This document shows, piece by piece, positions 2,612 to 32,737 of a DNA stretch of 52,764 bases (positions are counted from its first letter, which is position 1; each line of letters opens with the position of its first letter). The position numbers and the translations under genes were made by a program. This DNA comes from Thermovirgaceae bacterium (GTDB lineage: Bacteria > Synergistota > Synergistia > Synergistales > Thermovirgaceae): the NCBI GenBank assembly GCA_046542505.1, contig JBKHBH010000005.1:1-52764 (forward strand). Reading direction: 5' to 3'. Below the pieces are notes generated by a model. It saw nothing but the letters and a program-made list of their open reading frames with translations. It was not told the DNA's origin and made no database searches.

Positions 2612-3259
2612 TCAGGGGTTTTTCAGGGCTTTTCTGGAAAGGTCTACATGCGCGCGTATCAGATGTTCCGCCAGGTCGGCGTCGTTTTGACGAAGGGCGG
2701 ATAGGATCTGTCTGTGTTCTTCTAGGCTGGGGTTGGAATCGAAGTCGAAAAAAGATTCAAAGAGGATCATGTAGACATAAATTCGCGAAAGGATGTTCCC
2801 GACGAATTCCGAAAGCATCCGGTTGCCGCTGGCTTCGGCGATGATGCGGTGAAATGCGATATTTATACGCAGGTAGTCATCGAGCTTTCTTTCGGCGAAG
2901 GCCGTTTCCTCTTCATGGATGTTCTCCTCGAGCCTGTAGAGTTCGGGTGGACGGATCCGTTGGGCAGCCTTTCTGATGGACAGGCATTCAAGGTACTCGC
3001 GTAGCTCGTATGCATCGCGGACTTCTTCTTTTGTGGGGAAGACGAGGCGGGCGCCCAAGTTGGGGACAAAATCGACAAGCCCCTCGTTGGCGAGCCTGCG
3101 CAAAGCTTCCCGTACGGGCGTTCGGCTGACCTCGAGCTCCCGCGCAATCGACGCTTCCGGAAGACGCTGGCCCGCTGTGAGTTTTTTGCCAAAAATCCTA
3201 TTTCTCAGTTGACGGTACACGTATTCCGAAGCAGTGGAAAAGTCGTTTGGTGTTCTCAT
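2612..3259 (-). CDS. GntR-family (FCD domain) transcriptional regulator
   Basis: wHTH RLPEASIARELEVSRTPVREALRRL; FCD motifs FHRIIAEASGN and EEHRQIL. Start moved to ATG 3259 with GGAGG RBS. Confidence 0.92.
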   Translation of the reverse strand: MRTPNDFSTASEYVYRQLRNRIFGKKLTAGQRLPEASIARELEVSRTPVREALRRLANEGLVDFVPNLGARLVFPTKEEVRDAYELREYLECLSIRKAAQRIRPPELYRLEENIHEEETAFAERKLDDYLRINIAFHRIIAEASGNRMLSEFVGNILSRIYVYMILFESFFDFDSNPSLEEHRQILSALRQNDADLAEHLIRAHVDLSRKALKNP

Positions 3260-3408
3260 AAGGGTTCCTCCCGGTATAGACCGATTCAGGGTTTCTTCAC
3301 GCCCTTTTCTTACGGAAACGGATTGTACCTGATCATTGGGACCGTTGATAGCCTGCTTTGCCGGATAAACGCGGCGGCCGCGTCGAAATGGTATGCCCCG
3401 GCCGGGGG

Positions 3409-3437
3409 TTGACGTTTTAGAATAGATCATGTACAAA
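3409..3437 (+). promoter_or_regulatory. Putative sigma70 promoter of the SDR-gcvP-like operon
   Basis: TTGACG (3409-3414), 17 bp, TACAAA (3432-3437). Confidence 0.4.
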
Positions 3438-3440
3438 AGC

Positions 3441-3470
3441 ATGTATACGAAGTATACCATGTATACCATT
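3441..3470. promoter_or_regulatory. Putative GntR operator: three GTATAC palindromes at 9-bp period
   Basis: GTATAC at 3443, 3452 and 3461, between the divergent gntR and SDR genes; GTATAC-core boxes are typical of FCD-type GntR operators. Confidence 0.6.
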
Positions 3471-3513
3471 GCTGAAAAAGGGGATTTCTCTTTTTTTGAA
3501 AGGAGCGTTTCAG

Positions 3514-4260
3514 ATGTATGATGATTTGAAGGGAAGAACAGTTCTCGTGACCGGCGGCGCCAGCGGGATCGGAGAAGCGACGGCTCTGCGATTTCTCGAA
3601 GAAGGGTGCCGGGTTGCCGTTTTTGACAGGGACACAAAGGCTCTTGAGCGCCTGGTGGCAGAAAATCCGGGAATCGAGTTGGCCCTTGAGGGTGACGTTT
3701 GTTCTCCCGAAGATGTCGAAAGGGCTTTCGCGCAGATAGACAGCGGTTTCGCCCATCTTGACGTTCTCGTCTCAAACGCGGGAATCAGCGTCAGAAACCC
3801 CTTCACGGAGGTTACCTACGATCAATGGACAAAGGTCCTGAATATTAACCTCGGTGGAATGTTCCTTTTCGCCCGGGCCGCTGCGGAGCGCATGAAGGCG
3901 AAAAAGGGCGGAGTCATCCTGATGACGGCATCTACAAATGGTATGGAGGGGCATCCCCTGTACGCCGATTACAATGCTTCCAAGGCGGGGGTAATCCTTC
4001 TCACCAGGACATTAGCCTTGGAGTTTGCCCCGGATATCAGGGTGAACTGCGTGAGCCCGGGGTATGTCCTGACGCCGATGCAAAAAGCTGAATATACTGA
4101 AGAAATGCTCGAAAAGGTCAATGAAAAGATCCCCTTCAAGCGGCACGCAAAACCGTCGGAAGTGGCGGCGTTGTTTGCCTTTCTTGCGTCCTCCCAGGCA
4201 TCGTACATAACGGGGGCAAATATACCCATTGACGGTGGAGAGACAGCGGGACTTGTCTGA
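3514..4260 (+). CDS. Short-chain dehydrogenase/reductase (classical SDR, probably NAD-dependent)
   Basis: TGGASGIG, Asp after beta2 (VFDRD), NAG, YNASK, VNCVSPG, IDGG. ATG 3514 with AAGGAG RBS. Confidence 0.92.
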   Translation: MYDDLKGRTVLVTGGASGIGEATALRFLEEGCRVAVFDRDTKALERLVAENPGIELALEGDVCSPEDVERAFAQIDSGFAHLDVLVSNAGISVRNPFTEVTYDQWTKVLNINLGGMFLFARAAAERMKAKKGGVILMTASTNGMEGHPLYADYNASKAGVILLTRTLALEFAPDIRVNCVSPGYVLTPMQKAEYTEEMLEKVNEKIPFKRHAKPSEVAALFAFLASSQASYITGANIPIDGGETAGLV

Positions 4261-4288
4261 GAAACAGAACCCGAAGGAGGAAAAACAG

Positions 4289-5056
4289 ATGAAACACGAA
4301 GAACTGCTCAGTCTGAAAGGAAAGGTAGCCGTGGTGACCGGTGCTGCTTCAGGCATCGGCAAGGGGTGTGCCGAGTTCCTTGCAGACATGGGGGCGGAAG
4401 TTGTGCTTCTTGATATTTCAAAGGAAAAGGGCGAGTCTGCGGCGGCGGAAATCGCCTCGGGCGCCTCTTTCATGGAATGCGACATTACTGACGAGGCGCA
4501 GTGCAAGGCAGTGTCACGGAGAGTGAAAGAACGTTTCGGCAGGGTGGATGTTTTGGTCAACTGTGCGGGCGTTATCAGGAGAAAGAACGTCGTTGACCTG
4601 ACGGAAGAGGACTGGAATATCGTCATCGATGTCGGGCTCAAGGGGGCTTTCCTGGTATCCAAACACCTGATCCCCCTGATGGCGTCATGGGGCGGAGGGA
4701 GCATTATCAACATTGGATCAGGCTGGGGAATCAAAGGCGGACCGAATGCCGCGGCGTACTGTGCAGCCAAAGGCGGCATAACCAACCTGACGAGAGCCAT
4801 GGCCATCGATCACGGCCCTCAGAAAATCAGGGTCAATTGCGTTTCCCCGGGTGATACAGACACGCCTCTTCTGAGGGATGAGGCGAGACAGCTCGGAATT
4901 GACGAAGGTGAGTGGCTGGCCGAAAGCGCAGACAGGCCTCTTGCAAGACTCGGTGAGCCGAAGGACATCGCCATGGCGGTCTATTTCCTGGCAAGCGGTC
5001 TTTCAGGCTGGGTCTCTGGAACCAATATCGTAGTGGACGGCGGCGGAACGGCCTGA
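4289..5056 (+). CDS. Short-chain dehydrogenase/reductase (classical SDR)
   Basis: TGAASGIG, LLDIS, NCAG, YCAAK, VNCVSPG, VDGG. ATG 4289 with AAGGAGG RBS. Confidence 0.92.
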   Translation: MKHEELLSLKGKVAVVTGAASGIGKGCAEFLADMGAEVVLLDISKEKGESAAAEIASGASFMECDITDEAQCKAVSRRVKERFGRVDVLVNCAGVIRRKNVVDLTEEDWNIVIDVGLKGAFLVSKHLIPLMASWGGGSIINIGSGWGIKGGPNAAAYCAAKGGITNLTRAMAIDHGPQKIRVNCVSPGDTDTPLLRDEARQLGIDEGEWLAESADRPLARLGEPKDIAMAVYFLASGLSGWVSGTNIVVDGGGTA

Positions 5057-5099
5057 TCCTTCAGCACACCTTGAAGAAAACACAAGAGGAGGAATATTC

Positions 5100-6491
5100 A
5101 TGAGCAAACAGAAAATGGTGCACCCATACATCCCGAATTCAGACCCCCGAATTCAGAAAGAGATGCTGGAAGCCATCGGCGTTTCGGGCATAGACGAATT
5201 CTACAAGGGCATTCCTGAAGAACTTCGCGTGAAAGGATTGCTGAAACTTCCCGAAGCGCTTTCGGCTGAGTGGGACCTGAAACGGCACGTGGAAGACATG
5301 ATGCAGGAGAACACCTCCTGCCGCGACTCTCTGAGCTTTCTCGGCGGCGGCTGCTGGCAGCACCATGTGCCTGCCGTCTGCGACGAGATAAACAGGAGAT
5401 CGGAGTTTTTGACGGCTTACGCCGGAGAACCCTACGAGGATCACGGAAGATTCCAGGCGCTTTTTGAATACGCCAGCATGATGGCCGAGCTCGTTGATAT
5501 GGATGCCGTCAACGTCCCCACGTATGACGGATCACAGGCGGCTGCCACGTCGATCCGCATGGCATCCAGGATTACGGGGCGGAAAAGGGTTATTGTCGCG
5601 GCGAATGCTCATCCCGACAGGATCAGGGTGATCGAAAACTATTGCGACCCGGATATTGCCGTCGATCTCGTGAATTTCGATGAAAATACGGGAACCGTGG
5701 ATATCGGGAAGGTCGAAGCAGCCCTTGGCGATGACACAGCCGCCGTCTACATCGAGAACCCTTCCTATTTCGGCACTGTTGAGGCCGAAGGCGGGAAAAT
5801 AGCCGAAAAGGCTCACCAGGCCGGGGCGCTGCTTGTCGTGGGCTGCGACCCCTCGTCCCTTGGAGTCTTCGCACCACCGGCGAGTTACGGCGCTGATATT
5901 GCCTGCGGCGACCTGCAGCCTTTGGGAATGCACATGTATTACGGAGGGGCCCGGGCGGGTTTCATCGCCACCAGGGATGAGGAGAAATACGTTTCCGAAT
6001 ATCCTTCAAGGCTTTTTGGCATCGCTCCCACGACTCACCAGGCATGGGGTTTCGGTGACGTCGCATGGGAACGCCTGTCCTTTTCCGATCGAGAGAACGC
6101 AAAGGAGTTCGTCGGGACCGCGGCGGCTCTCTGGGCTATCACCGCCGGAGTGTACCTCGCGCTCATGGGGCCCAGCGGCATGCGGGAACTTGGAGAGGGC
6201 ATCCTCAAACGAAATGCCTATGCAAGAAAAAGGCTTTCGTCCATCCCTGGCGTGAAAGCCCTTTTCCCTGACGGAGTTTTCTTCAAGGATTTCGCCCTGA
6301 ATTTCGGCGGGACGGAAAAATCCGTGAAGGAAATCAACGAATGCCTCAGGGCGGAAGAAATCTTCGGTTGCGTGGATATTTCCGAGACGCATCCCACGCT
6401 CGGAGAAAGCGGCCTTTTCGCGGTGACCGAAATTCACACCGCGTCCGACATAGACCGGCTTGCGGACGCCCTGAAAAAGGCCGTCGCGTAA
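5100..6491 (+). CDS. gcvPA: Glycine cleavage P-protein subunit 1 (GcvPA)-like, divergent paralog
   Basis: HPYIPN N-terminus, SFLGGG..HHVPA, RSEFLTAY, YDG, ENPSYFG, GADIACGDLQPLG, AVTEIHT; substrate-site motifs are altered (see findings). Confidence 0.85.
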   Translation: MSKQKMVHPYIPNSDPRIQKEMLEAIGVSGIDEFYKGIPEELRVKGLLKLPEALSAEWDLKRHVEDMMQENTSCRDSLSFLGGGCWQHHVPAVCDEINRRSEFLTAYAGEPYEDHGRFQALFEYASMMAELVDMDAVNVPTYDGSQAAATSIRMASRITGRKRVIVAANAHPDRIRVIENYCDPDIAVDLVNFDENTGTVDIGKVEAALGDDTAAVYIENPSYFGTVEAEGGKIAEKAHQAGALLVVGCDPSSLGVFAPPASYGADIACGDLQPLGMHMYYGGARAGFIATRDEEKYVSEYPSRLFGIAPTTHQAWGFGDVAWERLSFSDRENAKEFVGTAAALWAITAGVYLALMGPSGMRELGEGILKRNAYARKRLSSIPGVKALFPDGVFFKDFALNFGGTEKSVKEINECLRAEEIFGCVDISETHPTLGESGLFAVTEIHTASDIDRLADALKKAVA

Positions 6492-6523
6492 AAACGTGAT
6501 TCTTGACAAGGGAGTTGAATGAC

Positions 6524-8086
6524 ATGGGAATGAATATAGATTCCAAGCTCAGGGATTTTCATCAGGCACGCTGGGACGAACCGATCATATACGAGATTTC
6601 GAAACCGGGAGAAAGAGGCGTATTGGTCCCGGAGTTCGGCGGCGATGACGCTGATGTGCAAATACCGGAAGGGATGAAACGCAACAGCGAACCGAACCTC
6701 CCGGAGATGGGGCAGATGCGCGTGTTGAGACATTACCTTCGGCTTTCCCAGGAAAATCTTGGCGCCGACCTCAATATTGACGTCGGCCAGGGAACATGCA
6801 CCATGAAGTACAGTCCCAAAATTAACGACCAGCTCGCGGCGAACCCGAAGGTGACCGAACTGCATCCCCGCCAGGATGAATCGACCGTCCAGGGAATTCT
6901 CAAGATGATTCACGAGACGGAGCTTTACCTTCGGGAAATATCCGGCATGGATCGGTTCTGTCTGCATCCGGGCGGCGGATCCCATGCGCTGTTGACAATA
7001 GCCTCAATCATCAGGAAATGGGTCGACAGCAGGGGTGAATCTGAAACGAGGGATGAAATCATCACCACCATTTTTTCCCATCCCTCAAACGCGGCTGTAA
7101 GCAAGCTGAAGGGTTTCAAGGTGATCACCATCTATCCCGGAGAAGACGGCCGTCCGGATATTGAAGCCCTCAAGGCCGCCGTTTCGGAACGGACCGCGGC
7201 GCTTTTGATCACCAATCCGGAGGATATAGGGATCTACAACTCGAGGATCAAAGAGTTTACGGACATTGTTCATGAAGCCGGCGGCATCTGCAGCTACGAC
7301 CAAGCCAATCTCAATGGGATCATGGGCCTTACCCGGGCCCGTGAGGCTGGGTTCGATCTTTGTTTCTTCAATCTCCACAAGACCTTCTCGGCTCCTCATG
7401 GTTGCGGCGGCCCCGGAGGCGGCGTGGTTGGAGCCACGAAGGCGCTTGCGGAGTTTTTGCCCGTGCCGCTGGTTTCTTACGACGCGAAGGGTGAACGCTA
7501 TTTCCTCGATTACGATGTGCGGAACACCATCGGCAAAGTCAAGGATTTTTATGGTGTCGTACCGGTTATCCTGAAAGCTTACGCATGGATCCGCAGTCTG
7601 GGGGCGGAAGGCCTTCTCGAGGCGGCGAAGGTAGCGGTACTGAATAACAATTACGTGTTCAAAAAAATCCTTGAAATCAGAGGCTGCTCGGCACCATACG
7701 CGGAAGGTGAGCTGAGGGTGGAACAGGTCCGTTACAGCTGGGAAGAATTGACCCGGGAAACGGGTATTACCACGGGGGATATCCAGAATCGCATGTTTGA
7801 CTTCGGCGTTCATTACTGGACGAGCCATGAACCCTGGATCGTCCCCGAGCCTGTCACCATCGAGCCTACCGAGTCTTATTCCAAGGACGAGCTCGACGAG
7901 TTTGTCGCCATACTCAAACATGTGGCCGGGGAAGCCTATGAAAACCCCGAGATGCTCAAGACGGCGCCCCATAAGAGTACTATCCACCATGTGGATCACG
8001 ACTATCTTGACGATCCCTCGAAGTGGGCCATGACATGGAGGGCGTACAAGAAGAAATTCGACGGTTATTTCGAGCCGAAGAAGTAG
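6524..8086 (+). CDS. gcvPB: Glycine cleavage P-protein subunit 2 (GcvPB)-like, divergent paralog
   Basis: RHYLRLSQEN, CTMKYSP, ITNPE, PLP-lysine motif NLHKTFSAPHG.GGPG, IEPTESYSK.ELD. Start set at ATG 6524 (GGGAG RBS); TTG 6503 is an alternative. Confidence 0.85.
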   Translation: MGMNIDSKLRDFHQARWDEPIIYEISKPGERGVLVPEFGGDDADVQIPEGMKRNSEPNLPEMGQMRVLRHYLRLSQENLGADLNIDVGQGTCTMKYSPKINDQLAANPKVTELHPRQDESTVQGILKMIHETELYLREISGMDRFCLHPGGGSHALLTIASIIRKWVDSRGESETRDEIITTIFSHPSNAAVSKLKGFKVITIYPGEDGRPDIEALKAAVSERTAALLITNPEDIGIYNSRIKEFTDIVHEAGGICSYDQANLNGIMGLTRAREAGFDLCFFNLHKTFSAPHGCGGPGGGVVGATKALAEFLPVPLVSYDAKGERYFLDYDVRNTIGKVKDFYGVVPVILKAYAWIRSLGAEGLLEAAKVAVLNNNYVFKKILEIRGCSAPYAEGELRVEQVRYSWEELTRETGITTGDIQNRMFDFGVHYWTSHEPWIVPEPVTIEPTESYSKDELDEFVAILKHVAGEAYENPEMLKTAPHKSTIHHVDHDYLDDPSKWAMTWRAYKKKFDGYFEPKK

Positions 8087-8102
8087 GGGTTGCACGAAAA
8101 TC

Positions 8103-9224
8103 ATGAAGCGCCTCGGGTTGATCGTCAACCCAATAGCCGGCATGGGAGGCCCCGTGGGTCTCAAGGGGACCGACGGCAGGAGTACCTACGAAGAAGCTCT
8201 CCGCCGCGGAAGTGTCCCGCGCGCCGAACAACGCGCGCGGGACGCCCTGCGGGCGTTGGAAGCATACAGGCACAATCTCGAAATTCTTGCCTGTGCAGGC
8301 CCCATGGGGAAAAATGTTGTTTCCGAGGCCGGATTTGATTGCAGAGTCGTTCTCGATCATTTTCAGGGAGAATTCTCTACGAGCAAGGACACAATCCGCG
8401 CTGCGCACCTTATGCGCAAGGAAAGTGCGGACCTTGTGCTCTTTGCAGGAGGTGACGGAACCGCCCGCGACGTGTGTGAAGCCATAGGGACTTTTGTTCC
8501 CGCGCTGGGCATCCCTGCGGGAGTCAAGATCCATTCAGGAGTCTTTGCGGTCAGCCCGAAAAGGGCGGGAGAGATGGCGAAAACCTTTCTCTTCGGCGGT
8601 GCAAGAGGGCGGACCAAGGAAATGGAAGTCATGGATATCGACGAGGATGCCTTCAGAAAAGACCGTGTTCAGGCCAGACTTTACGGGTACCTTTCGGTGC
8701 CCTGGGACCGGGGAAGGGTGCAAGGGTCGAAAGCGGGATCAGCAGCCTCTGAACAGGCTTCTCAGCAGGCGGTGGCCGAAGATATCGTCGAAAGGATGCT
8801 TCCTGAAAGAGCCTATATTCTTGCTCCGGGAACAACGGTGCGGGAAATTGCGCGGCGGCTTGGAGTCGAAAAGACGCTTTTGGGGATAGACGCTGTAAAA
8901 GGTGGGAGGCTTCTTGCCAGAGACCTGAATGAAAAAGAACTGCTGGAACTTCTGCAAAAAGAGGCATGTACCATCGTGGTCAGTCCTATCGGGGGCCAGG
9001 GATATATCTTCGGGAGGGGAAACCAGCAAATAAGCCCCAGGGTTATATGGGCTACGGGCAAGGAAAACATCCTCGTCGCCGCGACACCTCACAAGCTGGC
9101 GACCCTTGCGGGCAGGCCCCTTCTCCTCGATACAGGTGATGTGAAACTGGACCGGGTTCTCAAAGGTCCATGGCCGATTGTGACAGGATATCACGAGACA
9201 AGCATGTATCCCGTTTCTTTCTAG
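8103..9224 (+). CDS. ATP-NAD kinase family protein (AcoX-like)
   Basis: LIVNPIAGMGG.VGLKGTDG, GGDGTARDV, GIPAGVKIHSGVFA, GGQGYIFGRGNQQ, LDTGD. Confidence 0.85.
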   Translation: MKRLGLIVNPIAGMGGPVGLKGTDGRSTYEEALRRGSVPRAEQRARDALRALEAYRHNLEILACAGPMGKNVVSEAGFDCRVVLDHFQGEFSTSKDTIRAAHLMRKESADLVLFAGGDGTARDVCEAIGTFVPALGIPAGVKIHSGVFAVSPKRAGEMAKTFLFGGARGRTKEMEVMDIDEDAFRKDRVQARLYGYLSVPWDRGRVQGSKAGSAASEQASQQAVAEDIVERMLPERAYILAPGTTVREIARRLGVEKTLLGIDAVKGGRLLARDLNEKELLELLQKEACTIVVSPIGGQGYIFGRGNQQISPRVIWATGKENILVAATPHKLATLAGRPLLLDTGDVKLDRVLKGPWPIVTGYHETSMYPVSF

Positions 9225-9241
9225 AAAGAAATTCAAGGGAC

Positions 9242-9288
9242 AAAAAAGGACGAAAGGGGTTCACGGGACCCTTTCGTCCTTTCGTTTT
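9242..9288. terminator. Bidirectional intrinsic terminator between convergent genes
   Basis: AAAGGACGAAAGGG (9245-9258) / CCCTTTCGTCCTTT (9269-9282), flanked by A- and T-rich runs. Confidence 0.8.
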
Positions 9289-9306
9289 ATCGTTTTTGAA
9301 AACTAA

Positions 9307-9861
9307 TTACTGCGCACATTCTTTTCCGAGCCTTCGTGCCTCTTCCAGCCTGTCAGTTCCTTCGATGTCGTCAGGTCCGTGTACGCCGGAAGCATGAACC
9401 CTTCCGAGGATGTTCATTCCCAACAAGGCCGCCGATTTGTCCAGCGCGAAATCCATGCCCTCGAATACGTCGCTTGCAACGTCACCGCCTGCGGCCAAAA
9501 GAACGCAGCCTTTTCCGTTAAGGGTTTTTGACGCCTTGTCTGACGCGTAGGGTAGAAGGCGGTCCCAAAGCGCCTTGATTTGCGCGCTCCAGGTATACCA
9601 GTAGAGAGGGGCCGCGAAGACGAGGACGTCAGCGTCATCAATGGCCATGTATACTGAATCCATATCGTCTTGCAGAATGCAGTGTTTGCCGGCTTCCCAG
9701 CATTTGCGGCAGTCGATGCATGGCTTGATTGCCTTTTCGTTCAAAGGGATGAAATCGACATTGGCACCAACTTCTCTGGCACCTTCCGCAAAAGCCAGGG
9801 ACATTTTTTCAGTGTTCCCGTTCTTTCTGGGGCTTCCGAGAAAAACGAGCATCTTTTTCAC
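9307..9861 (-). CDS. Flavodoxin-family iron-sulfur flavoprotein (NADPH-dependent FMN reductase fold)
   Basis: GSPRKNGNT FMN-phosphate loop, CIDCRKC......C cysteine cluster, APLYW, K...DR. GTG start overlaps the upstream stop. Confidence 0.88.
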   Translation of the reverse strand: MKKMLVFLGSPRKNGNTEKMSLAFAEGAREVGANVDFIPLNEKAIKPCIDCRKCWEAGKHCILQDDMDSVYMAIDDADVLVFAAPLYWYTWSAQIKALWDRLLPYASDKASKTLNGKGCVLLAAGGDVASDVFEGMDFALDKSAALLGMNILGRVHASGVHGPDDIEGTDRLEEARRLGKECAQ

Positions 9862-10763
9862 GATAAAGAAACCTCCTCGTAAAAATTTTTAAACTTTTCG
9901 TGGATCCTGATAATCTCACGACGCACGGAAACATCCACCGGTTCAAGGGGCGGCCGCGGTGGGCCGCCATAGAGTCCTGCGTGATCCATGGCCGATTTGA
10001 GGCCGGGAACTCCAAAGCGCTTTGTGACTGCCTGATTAATGTCGATCAGCGCGAGCTGCAGGCGACGCGCCAGGACCATGTCCCCTCTGGAAAATGCGTC
10101 AAAAATGGCGCGACATGCCTCGGGGAAAATGTTGGCGACACCCATGGTTGCTCCATTGCATCCGACAGCGAGAGAAGGAAGCAAAAAGCTTCCGGATCCG
10201 GCGAACACACTGAAATCCCTTGCAGCGTTTTTACAGATCTGGGCGATCTGGACGATGTCACCCGAGCTGTCCTTGATGCCGGCGATGTTTTCATGGTGAG
10301 AGAGTTCGGAGGCCAGATGCCAGTCAAGGTTCCACCCCGTATTTGCAGGCATATTGTAGAGGACGACGGGAACAGGAGTGAGGTCGGCAACTTCGGTAAA
10401 ATATTTCAGGACGGCACGATGGGAATTCTGCCCCTTATAATAATGGGGAGGGAGAACAAGGACGGCGTGGCAGCCCGATTCGGCGGCGGCGAGGCTCAGT
10501 TCGGCGGTTTCTGATGTTGAGGCGCAATGGGTTCCTGCTATGATCGTGAATCTTTCGCCGGAAAGGCCTGCGCAGACCTTGAAGAGCTCGACTCTTTCTG
10601 AAAAACTGAGAAGAGGCCATTCGCCGTTCGAGCCTGCGATGACGAGACCGTCAAGGGGGGTTTTCTTCCAGTGAAGGATGTTTTTTTCGAGGGCGTCAAA
10701 GGAAATTTCCCCCTCTTTAGAAAAGGGTGTCGGAATAGGGGCGAACATTCCTTGTAGTATCAT
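9858..10763 (-). CDS. DapA/NAL-family aldolase, 4-hydroxy-2-oxoglutarate aldolase (HOGA)-like
   Basis: PIPTPF, GSNGE, YNMPANTG, Schiff-base IKDSSGD, FAGSG, VTKRFGVPGLK..MD..G.YGGP.RPPL. Confidence 0.85.
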   Translation of the reverse strand: MILQGMFAPIPTPFSKEGEISFDALEKNILHWKKTPLDGLVIAGSNGEWPLLSFSERVELFKVCAGLSGERFTIIAGTHCASTSETAELSLAAAESGCHAVLVLPPHYYKGQNSHRAVLKYFTEVADLTPVPVVLYNMPANTGWNLDWHLASELSHHENIAGIKDSSGDIVQIAQICKNAARDFSVFAGSGSFLLPSLAVGCNGATMGVANIFPEACRAIFDAFSRGDMVLARRLQLALIDINQAVTKRFGVPGLKSAMDHAGLYGGPPRPPLEPVDVSVRREIIRIHEKFKNFYEEVSLS

Positions 10764-25766: not shown

Positions 25767-25947
25767 GGATGAAGGCTGCAAGAGAGACTCCGGTAAGGTT
25801 CCGGGGCGCCGAAGGTGCAACCTTTTCCCAAAGGGGAAAGGGAAACTCTCAGGCGGAAGGATTGCAGCTGGACGATTCTCTGGACACGGCGCACATTCGT
25901 GCTCCCCGAGTGTGATGGTACTGGTCACCAGCCGGCAGGACAGAGAA
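25767..25947 (+). ncRNA. Glycine riboswitch (canonical aptamer 1 plus degenerate aptamer 2)
   Basis: Leader GGATGAA; P1 GCTGCAA/TTGCAGC; GAGAGAC..GCCGAAGGTGCAA..AAACTCTCAGG; linker TGGACGA; second P1 TTCTCTG/CAGAGAA with GGACAGAG. Lies upstream of glycine reductase genes. Confidence 0.88.
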
Positions 25948-25978
25948 CCCACCTATTCCGCGAATAGGGGGGTCTGTT

Positions 25979-26386
25979 TTGACCAACCGGTACATACTTC
26001 TGACCAACAATTCGACCTTTGCAGCCATGGCGGGTGTCGACCTTGAAATAATAAAAGGCGGCGCTGTTGATGTTATATCCCTCGCGAAGGGGCGAATTCT
26101 TGCGGGATGCCGACTCCTGCACCACCCTCTTTATGGAAATTTCACCCCACAGCAACAGCCGTTCAGGTCGTTGCTTCTGTCCTGTCCCAAAGACGAACAA
26201 GGCGAAAAATCCGACACCACCTCATACCGATTGATTGAAACGGCTTTGGAACGTTACGGTTCCCACATTCACAATTTACCGAAGCCGGAAGATTATCCCG
26301 ACAATGTACGAAATGATTACGCTTATATTGACAGGATGCTTTTGGAGGAAATACTCCTGTCTTGTTGTGGGCGTGTGCAAAGGTAA
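25979..26386 (+). CDS. grdX: GrdX protein
   Basis: ILLTNN, G.RLL.HPLYGN..P.Q.PFRS.L, DYAYID..L; first gene of the grd cluster. TTG start. Confidence 0.8.
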   Translation: MTNRYILLTNNSTFAAMAGVDLEIIKGGAVDVISLAKGRILAGCRLLHHPLYGNFTPQQQPFRSLLLSCPKDEQGEKSDTTSYRLIETALERYGSHIHNLPKPEDYPDNVRNDYAYIDRMLLEEILLSCCGRVQR

Positions 26387-26450
26387 AAAGCAATGCCGGA
26401 GGGGAATTCCCAAAAGCCGGTTCACATTTTCCGAAAGGAGGTGAGAAATA

Positions 26451-26768
26451 ATGATAGAGGTGAACAAGGACAATTTCGAGGAAGAGGTTCTCAAAAGTGA
26501 TTTGCCGGTCGTCGTCGACCTGTGGGGCCCCAAGTGCGGCCCTTGCATGTCTCTGATGCCGCAGGTAGAAGAACTCGCAAAAGAGTATGAGGGCAAGGTC
26601 AAGTTCTGCAAGCTCAATGTCGCGGAAAATCGCAGGCTTGTTATTTCCCTCAAAGTCATGGGCGTCCCGACCTTCCTGTATTACAAGGATGGCGAAATCG
26701 TCGACCGCGTGACGGGAGGGGAGGCAACGGCGGAAAAAATCCGTGCGAAGACGGAAAATTTTCTTTAG
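26451..26768 (+). CDS. trxA: Thioredoxin (glycine reductase-associated)
   Basis: VDLWGPKCGPC active site, VMGVPTF; AAGGAGGTG RBS. Confidence 0.93.
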   Translation: MIEVNKDNFEEEVLKSDLPVVVDLWGPKCGPCMSLMPQVEELAKEYEGKVKFCKLNVAENRRLVISLKVMGVPTFLYYKDGEIVDRVTGGEATAEKIRAKTENFL

Positions 26769-26814
26769 GCAAAAAAGCAGACAACGATCTTCACGTGAAA
26801 GGGGGGAAACGAAT

Positions 26815-28101
26815 TTGAAGCTTAACCTGAGAAAAGTGAACATCGCGAACGTCGAATGGGGTGGAAAAACCTGCGTCGAGACAGGAACACTCTATGTCAA
26901 CAAGGAGGAAATCATTGATCTCGCCTCCAATGACGAGCGGCTGAAAAGCGTCTCGGCAGAACTTGCACGGCCCGGCGAAAGTATCCGGATCATTCCGGTA
27001 AAGGATGTCGTGGAACCCCGTTGCAAAAGGGATGGATCGAATAATGTATTCCCCGGGTTTATCGGGGACGTTGACAGTGTTGGAGAAGGCGAAACGGTTG
27101 CCCTGTCAGGGGCAACAGTGTTGACCTGTGGAAAGATCGTGGGTTTCCAGGAAGGCATCGTTGATATGACGGGCCCCGGAGCTGAATACACACCCTTTTC
27201 GAAGACCCAAAATGTTGTTCTCGTATTCGAGCCTGTGGACGACCTTGAAAAGCATGAATACGAGGCGGCTTGCCGGATGGCCGGTCTCAAGGTGGCCCAC
27301 TACCTCGCGAAATGTGCCGTTGATGTGGAGCCCGACGAGACAAAGACCTATGAACTCCCGGATTTCGCACAAGCAATGACCTCCCATCCGGGTTTGCCCA
27401 AGGTGGCCTACCTCTATATGCTGCAGTCCCAGGGGCTTCTCCACGACACGTACGTGTATGGCGTCGACGTCAAAAAAATCATCCCGACTCTCATCCATCC
27501 CAATGAAGTTATCGACGGCGCAATCGTATCGGGTAACTGTGTCTCTGCCTGCGACAAAAACAGTACTTTCGCGCATCAGAACAACCCGGTCATCAAGGGA
27601 ATGTACGAAAGGCACGGCAGAGACTTCAATTTTGTCGGATGCATCATCACCAACGAGAATACGACTTTGGCCGACAAGAAACGGAGTTCTTCCTATGCGG
27701 TGAAATTGGCGAAGATGCTCGGAGTCCATGGACTCGTGATCTCCGAGGAAGGATTCGGGAACCCTGATACGGATCTGATAATGAACTGTCGAAAGGCGGA
27801 GCAGGCCGGGATCAAGACGGTCCTTCTGACCGACGAGTACGCTGGAAGAGACGGTGCAAGCCAATCTCTGGCCGACGCGTGTCCTGAGGCCGATGCCGTC
27901 GTAACGGCGGCGAATGCCAACGAAACAGTTGTCCTGCCAAAGCTCGAAAAGATCATAGGATTCACGGAAACGGCCGATGTTATTGCCGGCGGTTTCGATG
28001 GTTCACTCCGTGAGGACGGTTCGATCGAGGTCGAAATCCAGGCAATCACTGGAGCGACCAGCGAACTCGGACTGAGCAGAATTTCAGCTTACACAATTTG
28101 A
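26815..28101 (+). CDS. grdE: Glycine reductase complex component B proprotein (alpha/beta, pyruvoyl-forming)
   Basis: ARPGES.RIIPVKDV.EPR, GFQEGIVDMTGPGA.YTPFS, QSQGLLHDTYVYG, VSGNCVSACDKN, EEGFGNPD.DL. TTG 26815 with GGGGGG RBS. Confidence 0.9.
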   Translation: MKLNLRKVNIANVEWGGKTCVETGTLYVNKEEIIDLASNDERLKSVSAELARPGESIRIIPVKDVVEPRCKRDGSNNVFPGFIGDVDSVGEGETVALSGATVLTCGKIVGFQEGIVDMTGPGAEYTPFSKTQNVVLVFEPVDDLEKHEYEAACRMAGLKVAHYLAKCAVDVEPDETKTYELPDFAQAMTSHPGLPKVAYLYMLQSQGLLHDTYVYGVDVKKIIPTLIHPNEVIDGAIVSGNCVSACDKNSTFAHQNNPVIKGMYERHGRDFNFVGCIITNENTTLADKKRSSSYAVKLAKMLGVHGLVISEEGFGNPDTDLIMNCRKAEQAGIKTVLLTDEYAGRDGASQSLADACPEADAVVTAANANETVVLPKLEKIIGFTETADVIAGGFDGSLREDGSIEVEIQAITGATSELGLSRISAYTI

Positions 28102-28125
28102 CATATACTATTGGAGGTGACGTTC

Positions 28126-28602
28126 ATGGGCAAGCTTTCGGGCAAGAAAATGATTTTTCTCGGTGAGCGGGACGGTGTTGCCGGACCGGCCATGGAGGAG
28201 AGCCTGAAGAATTGCGGCGGCGAGGTAGCGTTTTCCGTTACCGAGTGTTTCGTCTGAACCGCCGCAGGGGCCATGGACCTGCAGAACCAGCAGCGCGTCA
28301 AAGACGCCGCTGAAAAGTTCGGACCAGAGAACGTCGTTGTGATCCTGGGCTCTTCCGATGCGGAAGGTGCAGAGATTTACGCAGAAACGGTCACGAACGG
28401 CGATCCGACTTTTGCAGGTCCTTTGGCCGGAGCCCCGTTGGGGCTCGCCGTGTACCACATACTCGAGCCGGAAATCAGGGAAGAGGCCGATCAGTCTGTT
28501 TGGGAAGACCAGATCGGCATGATGGAGATGGTCCTCGATGGTGAGGCCCTCGCGAACGCTGTGAAGGGAATCCGGGAACAGTACAGCAAGTACTCGGTGT
28601 AA
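28126..28602 (+). CDS. grdA: Glycine reductase selenoprotein A (UGA 28255-28257 = Sec44)
   Basis: ATG 28126 with GGAGGTG RBS; LGERDGV.GPAM..., TECFV-U-TAAGAMDL (CxxU), continuing in frame into the 28273..28602 ORF (AETVTNGDPTFAGPLAG); 158 aa. Confidence 0.95.
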
Positions 28603-28634
28603 GAAAAGACAACTCCTGGAAAGGGGGTGGGTAG

Positions 28635-29942
28635 ATGGCCTTTAAGGTAGTTCACTATATCAACCAGTTTTTCGCCGGGATCGGAGGCGAAGAAAAAGCC
28701 AACGTTCCTCCCGAGGCGCGAGACGGAGCCGTGGGGCCGGGTATGGCCTTGAATCAGGCTTTCGGCGATGAAGCTGAAGTGGTGGGGACGATTATCTGTG
28801 GTGATTCCTACTTCGCCGACAATATAGAGAAAGCCAGGCTGGAAATTCTGGAACTGGTGAAAAAATTCGAAGCAGACGGGCTCGTTGCGGGTCCCGCCTT
28901 TAATGCCGGGCGTTACGGAACAGCCTGTGGCGACGTTTGCGAGACCGTCGGGAAAGAACTCTCGATGCCCGCAGTTACCGGTATGTACACGGAAAACCCG
29001 GGAGTCGACATGTACAGGAAGTCCACGTACATTGTCGAAACGGCTGACAGCGCAAGAGGCATGAAGGACGCCGTACCGGCCATGGCGCGGATTCTCCTCA
29101 AGAAGCTCAGGGGAGAACCTCTGGGGAAACCCGAGGATGAGGGCTACATTCCGCGAGGCATACGGGTGAATTTCTTTGCCGAAAAGACCGGTGCTGAAAG
29201 GGCGCTGGAGATGCTTGCCAGGAAACTCAAGGGAGAGCCATTCACAACGGAGTATTCCATGCCGGTTTTCGACAGGGTTCCGCCGAACCCGCCGATTGCG
29301 GACATGTCACAGGCGAAAATTGCCCTCGTAACCTCCGGCGGAATCGTTCCGAAAGGTAACCCTGATCATATCGAGGCCTCCAGCGCATCGAAATATGGAG
29401 AATACAGCCTGGAAGGCATGGAAGTCATCTCGGTCGAAACCCATGAGACGGCTCACGGCGGATATGATCCGACTTACGCGAACGACGATCCGAACAGGGT
29501 GCTTCCCGTTGACGCAATGAGAGAGCTGGCGAAAGAAGGCGTGATCGGGAACTTTCACGAAGTTTTCTACAGCACTGTCGGGAATGGTACGTCCGTCGCA
29601 AATGCTTCGCGTTACGGAAGCGAAATCGCCGAAAAACTCAAGGACCATAATGTTGATGCCGTCATTGTCACGTCCACCTGAGGAACCTGCACTCGTTGCG
29701 GCGCAACGATCGTAAAGGAAATAGAACGAGCAGGTCTTCCGGTGGCTCACGTCTGCACCATCGTGCCCATTTCATTGACGGTTGGCGCGAACAGGATTGT
29801 CCCAGCGGTTGCCATACCGCATCCGCTGGGTGATCCGGAAAAGTCACCGGCCGAGGAAAAGAAGCTTCGCAAGGCGCTCGTGAAGAAAGCGCTTCTCGCC
29901 TTGCAGACGCCGGTAGACGAACAGACCGTATTCAACGATTAA
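28635..29942 (+). CDS. grdB: Glycine reductase complex component B gamma subunit, selenoprotein B (UGA 29679-29681 = Sec)
   Basis: VHYINQFFAGIGGEEKA, GPAFNAGRYG, TAHGGYD, TST-U-GTCTRCGAT, in frame with 29742..29942 (GANRIVP..AIPHPLG); 435 aa. Confidence 0.95.
29693..29709 (+). promoter_or_regulatory. Candidate SECIS hairpin of grdB
   Basis: TCGTTGC-GGC-GCAACGA stem-loop 11 nt after the in-frame UGA. Confidence 0.6.
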
Positions 29943-29958
29943 GCATGCTTGCATGATG

Positions 29959-29995
29959 GCCCGGCCCGGTTCCTTTAGTGTGAACCGGGCCGGGC
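29959..29995. repeat. 14-bp inverted repeat between grdB and grdC (no U tract)
   Basis: GCCCGGCCCGGTTC (29959-29972) / GAACCGGGCCGGGC (29982-29995). Confidence 0.75.
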
Positions 29996-30031
29996 AGAAC
30001 CAGAGTGTATTGTATGGAGGAGGAAAAGGTT

Positions 30032-31567
30032 ATGGCAAATGTTTCGATCCAGGGCTATGCCTATTGTTTGAACCACGTCCCGCATCTGGCCTTTCATTAT
30101 GGAATCACTCCCCTTGCGGAGCGGGAAGCACGGGGGGAGACAGAATATATACAGAAACTCAAGGAAAGAATGCAGACTTTCGACGAAGCCTGTTCCTATG
30201 CACCGAACCAGGCGTATATCGGCGCCATGGATCTTGAGACCCTTTGCGCCCAGCCCGGGCCCATGTACCAAAAAAGGCTGGGAAAGGCTTCCAGGATGGC
30301 AAAATACGGGGAAATCATGCCTGAAGAAGAATTTATCGGGCTTATGGATATATGTGACGTCTTTGACATTATCTGGCTGGAAGAAGGTTTCGCAACGAGA
30401 ATCGCCGAAAATCTGTCGAAACATCCATTGCTCGAAGAACGGCAGCTGAAAAAACTCGAAAAGGGGCATCCTTCCACCGAGATAGCAGAAGAGATCGCCA
30501 AACACGGAGCACTTCCGATTTATCTGGAAGATGAAATCGTCGGGTGCAGTCGGAAGGGCCACGAAACAGATGAATGCCTTTCGGCCTATGTCCTCATGGA
30601 AAACATCGCTTCCAAGGCAAGCGCTGTTCTCTCCCTTTTGCATCTGATAAAGAATTCGGGAATTTCGCCGGAGGAAATTGATTTCGTCGTCGAATGTTCG
30701 GAAGAGGCAGCGGGTGACGCGAACCAGCGTGGCGGAGGTAACTTTGCGAAAGCCGTGGCCGAGATTACCGGTTGTGTCAACGCGAGCGGTTTCGATGTCA
30801 GAAGTTTTTGTGCCGGTCCAGTAAACGCCGTAATCGCTGCGGGAGCACAGGTGGCGAGCGGCGTAAGGAAAAATGTCGCCGTAGTGGCCGGAGGGGCCGT
30901 GCCAAAACTTTACATGAACAGCCGGGATCATGTACGGAAGGAAATGCCGGCTCTGGAGGATTGTCTTGGAAGCTTTGCGGTGCTTTTGGGCCCAGAGGAC
31001 GGAAAGGCGCCAGTCATACGACTGGATGCCGTAGGGAAACACACCGTCGGTGCCGGATCATCGCCCCAGGCTATTACCGGCGCCCTGGTCTGGGACCCGC
31101 TCCAGAAACTGGGACTCGATTTCGATGATATCGACAAATATGCGGCAGAGCTCCACATCCCCGAGATTACACTCCCCGCGGGCGCGGGAGACGTCCCGAC
31201 GGCGAATTTCAAGATGATTGCCGCCCTGGCTGTCATGAAAGGGCAACTCGAAAAAAACGCCATGAATGATTTTGTCTCACAAAAAGGTATCCCGGGTTTC
31301 GCCCATACCCAGGGACATATCCCGTCAGGTGTCCCCTTTATTGGTCATGCCTGTGACGCCATCGCCGCCGGAGAGATGGAACGGGTAATGATTATTGGGA
31401 AAGGAAGCCTCTTCCTGGCACGTCTGACAAACCTTTCTGACGGAGCTTCCTTCGTCATTGAAAGATCCGGCGAACCGCAGGGCGGGGAGGGGCTTACGAA
31501 AGAAGACATCAGGGAAACCCTGCTCGACGCCCTTGCTGAAATAGCGGAAGGGCTCAAAAAAGACTGA
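30032..31567 (+). CDS. grdC: Glycine reductase complex component C subunit beta
   Basis: YAPNQAYIG, ECSEEAAGD.NQRGGGNFAKA.AE, DVRSFCAGP, KLYMNSRDH, GFAHTQGHIPSGVP, GKGSLFLARLTNL.DG. Confidence 0.93.
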   Translation: MANVSIQGYAYCLNHVPHLAFHYGITPLAEREARGETEYIQKLKERMQTFDEACSYAPNQAYIGAMDLETLCAQPGPMYQKRLGKASRMAKYGEIMPEEEFIGLMDICDVFDIIWLEEGFATRIAENLSKHPLLEERQLKKLEKGHPSTEIAEEIAKHGALPIYLEDEIVGCSRKGHETDECLSAYVLMENIASKASAVLSLLHLIKNSGISPEEIDFVVECSEEAAGDANQRGGGNFAKAVAEITGCVNASGFDVRSFCAGPVNAVIAAGAQVASGVRKNVAVVAGGAVPKLYMNSRDHVRKEMPALEDCLGSFAVLLGPEDGKAPVIRLDAVGKHTVGAGSSPQAITGALVWDPLQKLGLDFDDIDKYAAELHIPEITLPAGAGDVPTANFKMIAALAVMKGQLEKNAMNDFVSQKGIPGFAHTQGHIPSGVPFIGHACDAIAAGEMERVMIIGKGSLFLARLTNLSDGASFVIERSGEPQGGEGLTKEDIRETLLDALAEIAEGLKKD

Positions 31568-31582
31568 CGGGGAGTGTCATTT

Positions 31583-32737
31583 ATGTCAGAGCTCCGGGAA
31601 ATGATAGGCGAGGAACTCGCGGAGGTCATAAATATGGCCCGATCCGGAGGACCGGTTACGAGAATCGGTCTTATGGCTTCCGGAAGCGAACTGGGCCCCG
31701 AAGAGCTTCTGGTGGGCGGCATGGAAGCGGATAAAAGATATAGGGACATCCAGGTCGTCATGATCGGGCCCAAACCGGATGAATCCAATGGCCTTGAATG
31801 GATCGAAACGTCGGAGGACGAACAGGCTGTAGCGCAGGGTATGGAAAAAGCCATGAAAGACGGCAGTATTGATGGGGCCGTTGCCCTGCATTATCCTTTT
31901 CCTCTTGGCGTGACCACCGTAGGACGGGTTGTGACGCCCGCGAGGGGTAAGCCCATGTTCATTGCTTCGACGACGGGCACCAGTGCGACAACGCGGATTG
32001 AAGCCATGGTGCTGAATGCCCTGTACGGTGTTGCTGTAGCGAAATCCGCAGGGATAGAAAACCCGACTGTCGGAATCCTGAATGTTGACGGAGCCCAGAC
32101 GGTTTACAGGAGCCTCATACAGTTAAAAGAAAAAGGGTATGACCTTCGTTTTGGTGAAAGCGTGCGAAAGGACGGCGGAGCTGTTCTCAGGGGAAACGAC
32201 ATCCTGGCGGGTGCTGTGGATGTCTGCGTAACGGACACGCTCACGGGAAACGTCCTGATGAAGCTTTTCTCCGCCTATTCGACGGGCGGCAGTTACGAAT
32301 CTCTCGGGTGGGGATACGGACCTTCTGTAGGGAAAAACTGGAAGCATGTGGTGTCCATCATTTCTCGGGCTTCCGGGGCTCCGGTCATTGCAAATGCCAT
32401 CCGCCTTGCCGCTGATGTGGTGAAAGGTGATGTCGCACTGCGTGTTGCAGGGGAGCTCCAAAGAGCGGAAAAAGCAGGATACGCGGATATTCTTGCCGCG
32501 ACAGCTCCGGCGACAAAGGCCCCGGAGGATGAGGATATCGAGGCACCTCCCGCGGAACCGACGGATGAAGAGCTTCACGGTGTGGATGTACTCTCTATAG
32601 AAGACGCCGTCCGGGATCTCTGGAAAAACGGCATCTATGCGGAATCGGCCATGGGATGCACCGGCCCCGTTGTCAAGGTCGCGTCATCCCGTCTTGCTGA
32701 AGCGACAGAAATCCTGCAGAAAAATAGCTACCTGTAA
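31583..32737 (+). CDS. grdD: Glycine reductase complex component C subunit alpha
   Basis: GSELG, LHYPFPLGVTTVGRV.TP..G, DTLTGNVLMK, GWGYGP, SRASGAPVIA, catalytic ESAMGCTGPV. Confidence 0.93.
   Translation: MSELREMIGEELAEVINMARSGGPVTRIGLMASGSELGPEELLVGGMEADKRYRDIQVVMIGPKPDESNGLEWIETSEDEQAVAQGMEKAMKDGSIDGAVALHYPFPLGVTTVGRVVTPARGKPMFIASTTGTSATTRIEAMVLNALYGVAVAKSAGIENPTVGILNVDGAQTVYRSLIQLKEKGYDLRFGESVRKDGGAVLRGNDILAGAVDVCVTDTLTGNVLMKLFSAYSTGGSYESLGWGYGPSVGKNWKHVVSIISRASGAPVIANAIRLAADVVKGDVALRVAGELQRAEKAGYADILAATAPATKAPEDEDIEAPPAEPTDEELHGVDVLSIEDAVRDLWKNGIYAESAMGCTGPVVKVASSRLAEATEILQKNSYL

Follow-up and report, generated by a model that had tools for sequence, protein, structure and literature searches.

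A kinase-linked P-protein paralogue operon in a Thermovirgaceae bacterium belongs to a widespread module distinct from the glycine cleavage system

Introduction

What does a two-subunit P-protein of the glycine decarboxylase type do when its genes are accompanied not by those of the glycine cleavage partners but by two short-chain dehydrogenase (SDR) genes and a kinase-family gene? This question is raised by an operon at positions 2612-9297 of the window, by which the whole analysed stretch of 52,764 nt is meant (contig JBKHBH010000005.1 of the Thermovirgaceae bacterium assembly GCA_046542505.1, phylum Synergistota), belonging to a 2.14-Mb metagenome-assembled genome (MAG) that is 93.5% complete. 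An initial annotation, made from the letters alone, described here a five-gene operon on the plus strand, a divergent gene for an FCD-type GntR regulator, a repeated operator and a closing terminator, all of which were confirmed by open reading frame calls, Pfam and NCBIfam searches and reading of the sequence. The operon order is SDR1, SDR2, P-protein alpha-like, P-protein beta-like and kinase (hereafter KIN), with intergenic distances of 28, 43, about 35 and 16 nt (Table 1). It was also proposed that the operon serves a substrate-inducible pathway in which the P-like enzyme, dependent on pyridoxal phosphate (PLP), decarboxylates a non-glycine amino compound with a borrowed lipoyl carrier or with none. 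The operon is a member of a widespread, unstudied module distinct from the glycine cleavage system, and no published description of this module was found in literature searches, which did not extend to supplements.

Results and discussion

The P-protein pair is a paralogue of canonical GcvP

The pair is not the only P-protein of its genome, as a canonical gcvT-gcvH-gcvPA arrangement is located at the end of contig C34, which also holds the only gcvT and gcvH matches of the genome; both genes are absent from the window, in agreement with what had been noted for the operon. Nor does the pair fall inside the canonical GcvP clade, whether judged by bit scores, identity or phylogeny. Scores against the GcvPB model are bimodal among 41 Synergistales genomes, with 739-791 bits for canonical proteins encoded beside gcvT/gcvH and 511-592 bits for those encoded beside the kinase, which are called type-2 here, and the beta-like protein of the window shares 42-91% identity with type-2 proteins and 35-41% with canonical ones. 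In the tree of beta subunits, 61 type-2 kinase-linked rows are split from the canonical outgroup, a small one with 12 rows from two phyla, at a Shimodaira-Hasegawa-like approximate likelihood ratio test (SH-aLRT) support of 100. Due to the bimodal scores, the identity gap and this split the type-2 sequences are regarded as a separate clade, and the pair, hereafter PA2 and PB2, as a distinct paralogue rather than a spare P-protein of glycine cleavage. The two kinds were found to coexist in all five distant genomes compared, namely those of Heimdall, Bathyarchaeota, Methanodesulfokora, C. ultunense and Thermoleophilia, with C. ultunense possessing three type-2 copies.

The paralogy is accompanied by a set of remodelled residues. 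The PLP lysine is kept in PB2, whose NLHKTF motif is matched in the alignment with 1WYT chain B, and K284 is invariant across 45 type-2 sequences. In the alpha subunit the canonical loop YTPYQPE(I/V)SQGxLQA, found in 12 of 12 canonical sequences (one of which has A for the second P), is replaced by Y(A/G)G-EPYEDHG(R/K)FQA, which is one residue shorter and is present in all 56 type-2 sequences with per-column conservation of 80-96%; PA2 of the window reads YAG-EPYEDHGRFQA. This loop is placed in the active site by way of the human numbering as we take it to be. Y161 and Y164 of human GLDC are listed as active-site residues in PMC7259800. In PB2, 30 columns are fixed differently from the canonical proteins, the changes including SAHGTNPA to FSHPxNAA, YDGANLNA to YDQANLNG, CxHExV to RxEQxR and HPPTxYFP to HxWxSHxP. 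Type-2 beta subunits also have a new invariant R396 and a near-invariant R401, while the PLP lysine, the aspartate of YDxAN and the histidine are retained.

Linkage to the kinase and distribution

The linkage of the pair with the kinase and the SDRs, whose absence from other genomes would have spoken against the initial proposal, is conserved: it was found in 18 of 18 other genomes of the same family that were searched, in several further families of the Synergistales and, in a cross-phylum comparison, at 52 of 80 loci. The full arrangement, with the GntR gene divergent from SDR-SDR-PA-PB-KIN, also occurs where the flanking genes differ and is rearranged once. Type-2 beta subunits are encoded by 26 of the 28 kinase-bearing Synergistales genomes, the other two having the kinase at a contig end, and by none of the 13 kinase-less ones.

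The cross-phylum survey comprised 80 loci fetched with the kinase from a collection of species-representative genomes. The PB2 gene lies directly 5' of the kinase gene in 52 of these (48 if only the 73 loci with sufficient sequence 5' of the kinase are counted), in one further locus the kinase comes first, and PA2, PB2 and the kinase are all present in 47. At least one SDR gene is close by in 25 of the 52 PB2-KIN loci and two are in 14, many loci from other phyla having the SDR2 homologue immediately 5' of PA2, and a GntR homologue occurs in six; all-against-all clustering of the neighbours in the 80 loci returned no other widely recurring partner. The bacterial hosts of the kinase family belong, among others, to Synergistota, Bacillota, Actinomycetota, Pseudomonadota, Atribacterota, Aminicenantes, Gemmatimonadota and Thermodesulfobacteriota, and the archaeal ones to Heimdall-, Bathy- and Hadarchaeota, Methanodesulfokora, DHVE2 and haloarchaea. 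The kinase family itself comprises at least 8000 clusters at E <= 1e-20.

Plasmids of aerobes carry the version KIN-gcvPA-gcvPB together with LysR or TetR regulators, APC permeases and SDRs, as well as acyl-coenzyme A (CoA) synthetases, an ArgE/DapE deacylase and a primary-amine oxidase; the P-like genes on these plasmids are all named as ordinary GcvPA/GcvPB by the Prokaryotic Genome Annotation Pipeline (PGAP). A third arrangement, consisting of KIN, DUF436, a gene resembling B12/radical S-adenosylmethionine (SAM) methyltransferases, PA2 and possibly PB2, was seen in L044:2-10251 (G026), where it adjoins microcompartment genes coding for a bacterial microcompartment (BMC) shell protein, PduS-like protein, aldehyde dehydrogenase, PduO-like protein and Fe-type alcohol dehydrogenase (Fe-ADH).

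Occurrence without H-protein, T-protein and lipoylation

Neither gcvH nor gcvT was found in 13 operon-bearing Synergistales genomes. In four of these 13, each of them 99% complete (G010, G014, G024 and G025), LplA and LipA were not found either, and each of the four encodes one biotin/lipoyl-domain protein of about 138 aa and no more. The proposal that the enzyme needs no lipoyl carrier is thereby supported.

These genomes bear on the simplest alternative, according to which PA2 and PB2 are an ordinary second P-protein under different regulation that obtains its H, T and L proteins from elsewhere, with the kinase and the SDRs as bystanders. The window's own genome does encode gcvT, gcvH and lipoylation enzymes, PGAP applies the names GcvPA and GcvPB, and both subunits pass the equivalog cut-offs for true GcvPA and GcvPB, scoring 484.3 bits against a cut-off of 364 for NF001696 and 578.8 against 441 for NF003346. 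We nevertheless consider this alternative improbable in view of the relatives in which the H, T and lipoylation genes were not found, the separate clade that coexists with canonical copies, and a kinase linkage that is conserved across domains and accompanied by predicted binding, which is described below.

The kinase-family protein

The protein KIN gives Pfam matches to PF01513 (65.3 bits) and PF20143 (60.9 bits) as well as to DAGK_cat, and its invariant motifs NPIAGMGG, GGDGT and GGQG..GRGNQQ fit an active phosphotransferase of the NAD kinase/diacylglycerol (DAG) kinase superfamily. No NCBIfam family and, by sequence, no solved relative was found for it, and a protein atlas search returned generic names only. 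The AlphaFold2 (AF2) model has a predicted local distance difference test score (pLDDT) of 88.5, and its Foldseek matches are weak ones to NADK/DgkB with template modelling (TM) scores of about 0.2-0.26. A role as housekeeping NAD kinase was ruled out, as a canonical NadK is encoded on contig C65 (115 bits to NAD_kinase_C). KIN is about 90 residues longer than this NadK and has IGGQGY where NadK has TGSTAY, which we take to be the NAD-site motif.

Complex prediction for the pair of kinase and PB2 with purpose-built alignments gave a score of 0.78 (0.79, 0.77 and 0.78 when repeated), the best of three controls scoring 0.00. This mark was attained by 116 of the 157 solved complexes in the reference set, compared with 2 of its 215 mismatched pairs. 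The partners have pLDDT of at least 80 and the contacts agree to at least 68%. The predicted interface joins the C-terminal hairpin of the kinase (residues 355-370) to PB2 residues 195-205 and 212-217 and touches 436-439, and two residues on the PB2 side, K197 and P203, are type-2-specific columns. The model supports binding of the kinase to PB2, and it is unlikely to reflect the memory of a known complex since no solved relative of the kinase was found by sequence.

Members of the kinase family are also encountered outside the type-2 operon. Natural fusions (proteins P0122-P0133) join the kinase domain with an SDR, a class-III aminotransferase, a PdxB-like 2-hydroxyacid dehydrogenase and SAM methyltransferases. 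A 47% identical paralogue is encoded in the same genome at G000:C16 (L045:2076-4300) beside urocanase, and a HisC/CobD-like class I/II aminotransferase gene follows or overlaps the paralogue here as well as in two relatives and Peptoclostridium acidaminophilum (L045, L165, L166, L191:9001-11077).

Such partners bear on another explanation, that the kinase is not a pathway enzyme but a subunit for cofactor supply or maturation. It could, for instance, be a vitamin B6 (pyridoxal) kinase charging the P-type proteins and further PLP enzymes with their cofactor. The partners are nearly all PLP enzymes, namely the P-protein, the type-2 P-protein, class I/II aminotransferases (in G000:C16, G001, G007 and P. 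acidaminophilum) and the class-III aminotransferase of the fusion. A PdxB-like fusion exists as well, the S-component of an energy-coupling factor (ECF) transporter is a neighbour in Tissierellia, no more than 4 of the 41 Synergistales genomes gave a match for PdxS, and 10 of the 11 genomes lacking a PdxK/ThiD-family gene carry the kinase. Against this, 18 of the 28 kinase-bearing genomes also have a PdxK/ThiD-family gene, the pattern tracks phylogeny, and no B6 kinase is known to have this fold. The SDR fusion, the methyltransferase fusions and the position of AcoX beside a thiamine-dependent enzyme, as given in PMC10107126, would also be left unexplained. The explanation appears quite improbable.

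Regulatory elements

The GntR and SDR1 genes are divergent and separated by 254 nt. Within this intergenic region there is an operator-like array with GTATAC copies at 3443, 3452 and 3461 and ATGTACAA at 3429, just past a promoter-like TTGACG/TACAAA pair; the latter was recognised by reading of the sequence and was missed by a consensus promoter scan, and in related intergenic regions a TTGAC box is found at a similar distance 5' of the array. A triple GTWWAC array with 9-nt spacing is present in 12 of the 17 GntR/SDR intergenic regions compared, with the window counted, including that of the Atribacterota locus L117, and is thus a conserved operator-like element; a GntR homologue occupies the same divergent position in related loci. 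The inducibility by substrate that was proposed initially would be compatible with the conserved operator.

The terminator is located between the convergent kinase and flavin mononucleotide (FMN) reductase genes. Its perfect 12-bp stem (9247-9258/9269-9280, AGGACGAAAGGG/CCCTTTCGTCCT) encloses a loop of 10 nt and is preceded by an A-run and followed, on the plus strand, by a T-rich tail; only a 5-pair version at 9265-9280 was reported by a consensus terminator scan.

No riboswitch was detected within 2612-9224 with Rfam, which agrees with the earlier remark that the operon lacks a glycine riboswitch although its genome uses one elsewhere, an Rfam glycine riboswitch being present at 25769-25874. 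The latter (67.8 bits) opens a region spanning 25769-32737 in which a glycine reductase cluster with GrdE/B-type and GrdC/D-like genes follows; a selenocysteine insertion sequence (SECIS) element at 29682-29719 stands directly after the GRDB frame ending at 29681.

Proposed function

The explanation that we tentatively place first is a lipoyl-independent PLP decarboxylase-kinase complex which, together with the SDRs, acts on a hydroxy- or oxo-amino acid. PA2 and PB2 would constitute a remodelled two-subunit P-protein, a PLP-bound decarboxylase of a small amino compound working without lipoyl-H-protein or T-protein. The kinase would dock on PB2 through its C-terminal hairpin and use ATP for the phosphorylation of a hydroxyl group, either on the substrate or on the amine formed from it. 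The two SDRs of NAD type would catalyse an oxidation or reduction at a neighbouring hydroxyl or oxo group, and the FCD-GntR protein, seated on the triple GTATAC array, would keep the operon repressed until it binds an acid effector. Because the SDRs would act on a neighbouring hydroxyl or oxo group and the kinase on a hydroxyl, the substrate is most likely a hydroxy- or oxo-amino acid of a kind related to Gly, Ser or Thr.

Several observations weigh against this explanation, and part of them support glycine itself as the substrate, in which case PA2/PB2 with the bound kinase would decarboxylate it independently of the H and T proteins, and the kinase or some other partner would stand in for the lipoyl acceptor or drive the reaction with ATP. 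In the Bacillota MAG locus L098 the type-2 operon PA2-PB2-KIN-DUF436 has a tandem glycine riboswitch (5529-5742, 55.3 and 47.3 bits) about 250 nt 5' of PA2, with a terminator-like hairpin after the riboswitch, the L098 genome also holding a canonical gcvH-PA-PB on contig ends, and one glycine aptamer (50.2 bits) is located at L183:734-836, 5' of the type-2 operon of this 85% identical relative. Five loci tie the kinase family to canonical gcv, gcvH and lipoylation clusters. It heads canonical KIN-gcvT-gcvH-gcvPA-gcvPB operons in Syntrophomonadaceae-like hosts (L089:8977-13488 and L175:4086-9852, the latter with a radical-SAM gene 3' of the operon). In Hadarchaeota (L170:6407-10779) it stands on the same strand as an LplA/B-type ligase gene, two radical-SAM genes, which by their position we take to be LipS1/LipS2-like, and gcvH, and in two archaeal loci kinase paralogues are tail to tail with gcvH-gcvT. 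In the kinase tree the archaeal gcvH-linked copies group with the paralogue of this genome, and the L089 and L175 copies are placed among those linked to type-2 P-proteins. This link to lipoyl systems is left unexplained by a simple pathway-kinase model. Further points against the explanation placed first are that only 25 of the 52 kinase-linked loci have an SDR gene nearby, that the operon contains no transporter gene and no gene for an enzyme consuming a phosphorylated amine, that both subunits meet the cut-offs for true GcvPA and GcvPB, that the canonical outgroup of the tree is small, and that the changed residues are placed along the active site partly on our own assumption.

For glycine there are also a Kbl-like glycine C-acetyltransferase gene 3' of KIN in L091, the fermentation of glycine by the host via glycine reductase, and the predicted contact of the kinase with PB2 436-439 beside the remodelled HxWxSHxP. 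On the other hand, a glycine riboswitch was not found in the other 42 of the 44 type-2 loci scanned, and the two that have it are close relatives; a GntR regulator is used here despite the glycine riboswitch elsewhere in the genome; and the loop shaping the glycine site has been rewritten, with the loss of one residue. This rewritten loop, the SDRs and, in other loci, the neighbouring genes for a permease, a deacylase, a CoA ligase and an amine oxidase suggest a larger amino compound with a bigger carbon skeleton. Glycine is considered a less likely, though serious, candidate for the substrate. The interpretation given in the initial annotation therefore stands in part: the paralogue and the conserved linkage are borne out, the lipoyl independence is supported, and the glycine riboswitches of L098/L183 and the kinase paralogues in canonical gcv and lipoylation clusters speak against the non-glycine substrate.

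A bolder variant, to which we give only a slim chance, is that PA2/PB2 and the kinase form an ATP-coupled PLP machine. The bound kinase would replace the lipoyl arm of H-protein and be coupled directly to the carbanion of decarboxylation or, in the reverse direction, to amine carboxylation driven by ATP.

The formation of aminopropanol-phosphate for cobamides (threonine to 2-amino-3-oxobutanoate, aminoacetone, aminopropanol and its phosphate) was also considered. The search for CbiB was negative for this genome and for 22 of the 28 kinase-bearing relatives, including the complete G004, and on this ground the biosynthetic role as a source of the cobamide linker was ruled out. A catabolic version of the route is possible, though the operon is without a phospho-lyase.

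Gene content and neighbouring genes

The features of the locus are listed in Table 1.

Table 1 Features of the type-2 P-protein locus and of the adjoining genes (window coordinates)
Feature	Position	Strand	Basis or remark
FCD-type GntR transcription factor, 215 aa	2612-3259	-	Pfam GntR + FCD; divergent from the operon
Putative promoter-like element, TTGACG, 17 nt, TACAAA	3409-3437	+	Sequence reading; upstream of SDR1
Operator array, ATGTACAA + GTATAC-N3-GTATAC-N3-GTATAC	3429-3466	.	Repeat/palindrome search
SDR1, classical short-chain dehydrogenase, 248 aa	3514-4260	+	adh_short_C2 219 bits; TGGASGIG + YNASK
SDR2, classical short-chain dehydrogenase, 255 aa	4289-5056	+	adh_short_C2 227 bits; TGAASGIG + YCAAK
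PA2, type-2 P-protein alpha-like subunit, 463 aa	5100-6491	+	GDC-P 206 bits; NF001696 484.3 bits
PB2, type-2 P-protein beta-like PLP-binding subunit, ~520 aa	6524-8086	+	GcvP2_C + Aminotran_5; NF003346 578.8 bits
KIN, NAD-kinase/DAG-kinase-superfamily protein, 373 aa	8103-9224	+	Pfam NAD_kinase N + C domains
Intrinsic terminator	9247-9297	.	Between convergent kinase and FMN-reductase genes
Possible accessory gene (uncertain), FMN reductase	9307-9861	-	Pfam; convergent with the operon
Possible accessory gene (uncertain), DHDPS-family aldolase type	9858-10763	-	Pfam; convergent with the operon

The regulator consists of a winged-helix PF00392 domain at residues 12-69 (62.6 bits) and a PF07729 FCD domain at residues 82-206 (100.4 bits), and it passes no NCBIfam equivalog, the top one being PhnR with 110.7 bits against a cut-off of 271.5. 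Both SDRs possess the adh_short domain and the TGxxxGxG and YxxxK motifs of classical members of the family, and both probably prefer NAD, given that FDRD closes beta2 in SDR1 and that SDR2 carries LDIS, under a cofactor rule which we take to hold here. The closest solved structures are generic ones (glucose, butanediol and FabG-type enzymes), from which the substrate specificity of either SDR could not be read. The start of PB2 is ATG 6524 or 6530, with the reading frame opening at TTG 6503.

The synteny of the FMN reductase gene and the dihydrodipicolinate synthase (DHDPS)-family gene with the operon is limited to loci of the same family. An FMN_red gene was also seen 3' of KIN in the Bathyarchaeia locus L102, and DHDPS-family genes of the pyruvate-aldolase type lie near KIN in three unrelated hosts, namely in the window, at L195:10098-11039 on a haloarchaeal (Natronosalvus) plasmid and at L197:14395-15312 on a plasmid of the Roseobacter group (Antarctobacter), with two SDR genes beside the DHDPS-family gene on both plasmids. 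This recurrence is a further hint of an amino compound larger than glycine.

Comparison with known systems

The type-2 pair has the same two-subunit architecture and belongs to the same fold family as the P-protein of glycine cleavage, with E-values to 1WYT of 1.6e-68 for the alpha and 2.3e-94 for the beta subunit. It differs from the latter in being linked to a kinase-family gene, whose product is predicted to bind it, instead of gcvT/gcvH, in the remodelled alpha loop and beta motifs, and in its occurrence in genomes where H, T, LplA and LipA were not found.

Kinase and PLP-enzyme pairs that act on hydroxy-amino compounds are represented by PduX/CobD and by amino-alcohol kinases with class-III phospho-lyases. 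The same logic of a small-molecule kinase working with a PLP enzyme is recognisable in the fusions and adjacent aminotransferase pairs of the KIN family, whereas the kinase fold and the family of the PLP enzyme both differ and the present operon has no phospho-lyase. With NadK/PpnK and the lipid kinases of the DgkB/YegS type KIN shares the NAD_kinase N and C and DAGK_cat domains and the GGDGT and NPxxGxGG motifs; it has the NAD_kinase domain and GGDG of NadK but neither its TGSTAY motif nor a passing score against the curated NadK model.

In family and gene context KIN may be likened to AcoX of acoXABC, as both are NAD-kinase-family proteins encoded beside a decarboxylating or cleaving enzyme; the partner in AcoX operons is a thiamine-dependent enzyme of the E1 type, and here it is a PLP enzyme. 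KIN is not part of an acoXABC acetoin dehydrogenase operon, its neighbours being SDRs and P-like genes, and none of the 13 plasmid records matching KIN, seven of which were examined in detail, is labelled acoX. The function of AcoX is stated to be unknown in PMC10107126.

Significance

Automatic annotation labels the module as ordinary glycine cleavage. In PMC11227167 gcvPA/gcvPB are taken as pathway evidence, and metabolic reconstructions may be misled where they credit a genome with glycine cleavage or the reductive glycine pathway on the strength of these genes. Solving the chemistry of the module would give a function to the AcoX-type kinase family and show a role of the P-protein fold without lipoate. 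If the ATP-coupled machine proves true, it would mean lipoate-free glycine-type C1/C2 chemistry in anaerobic bacteria and archaea, including Asgard.

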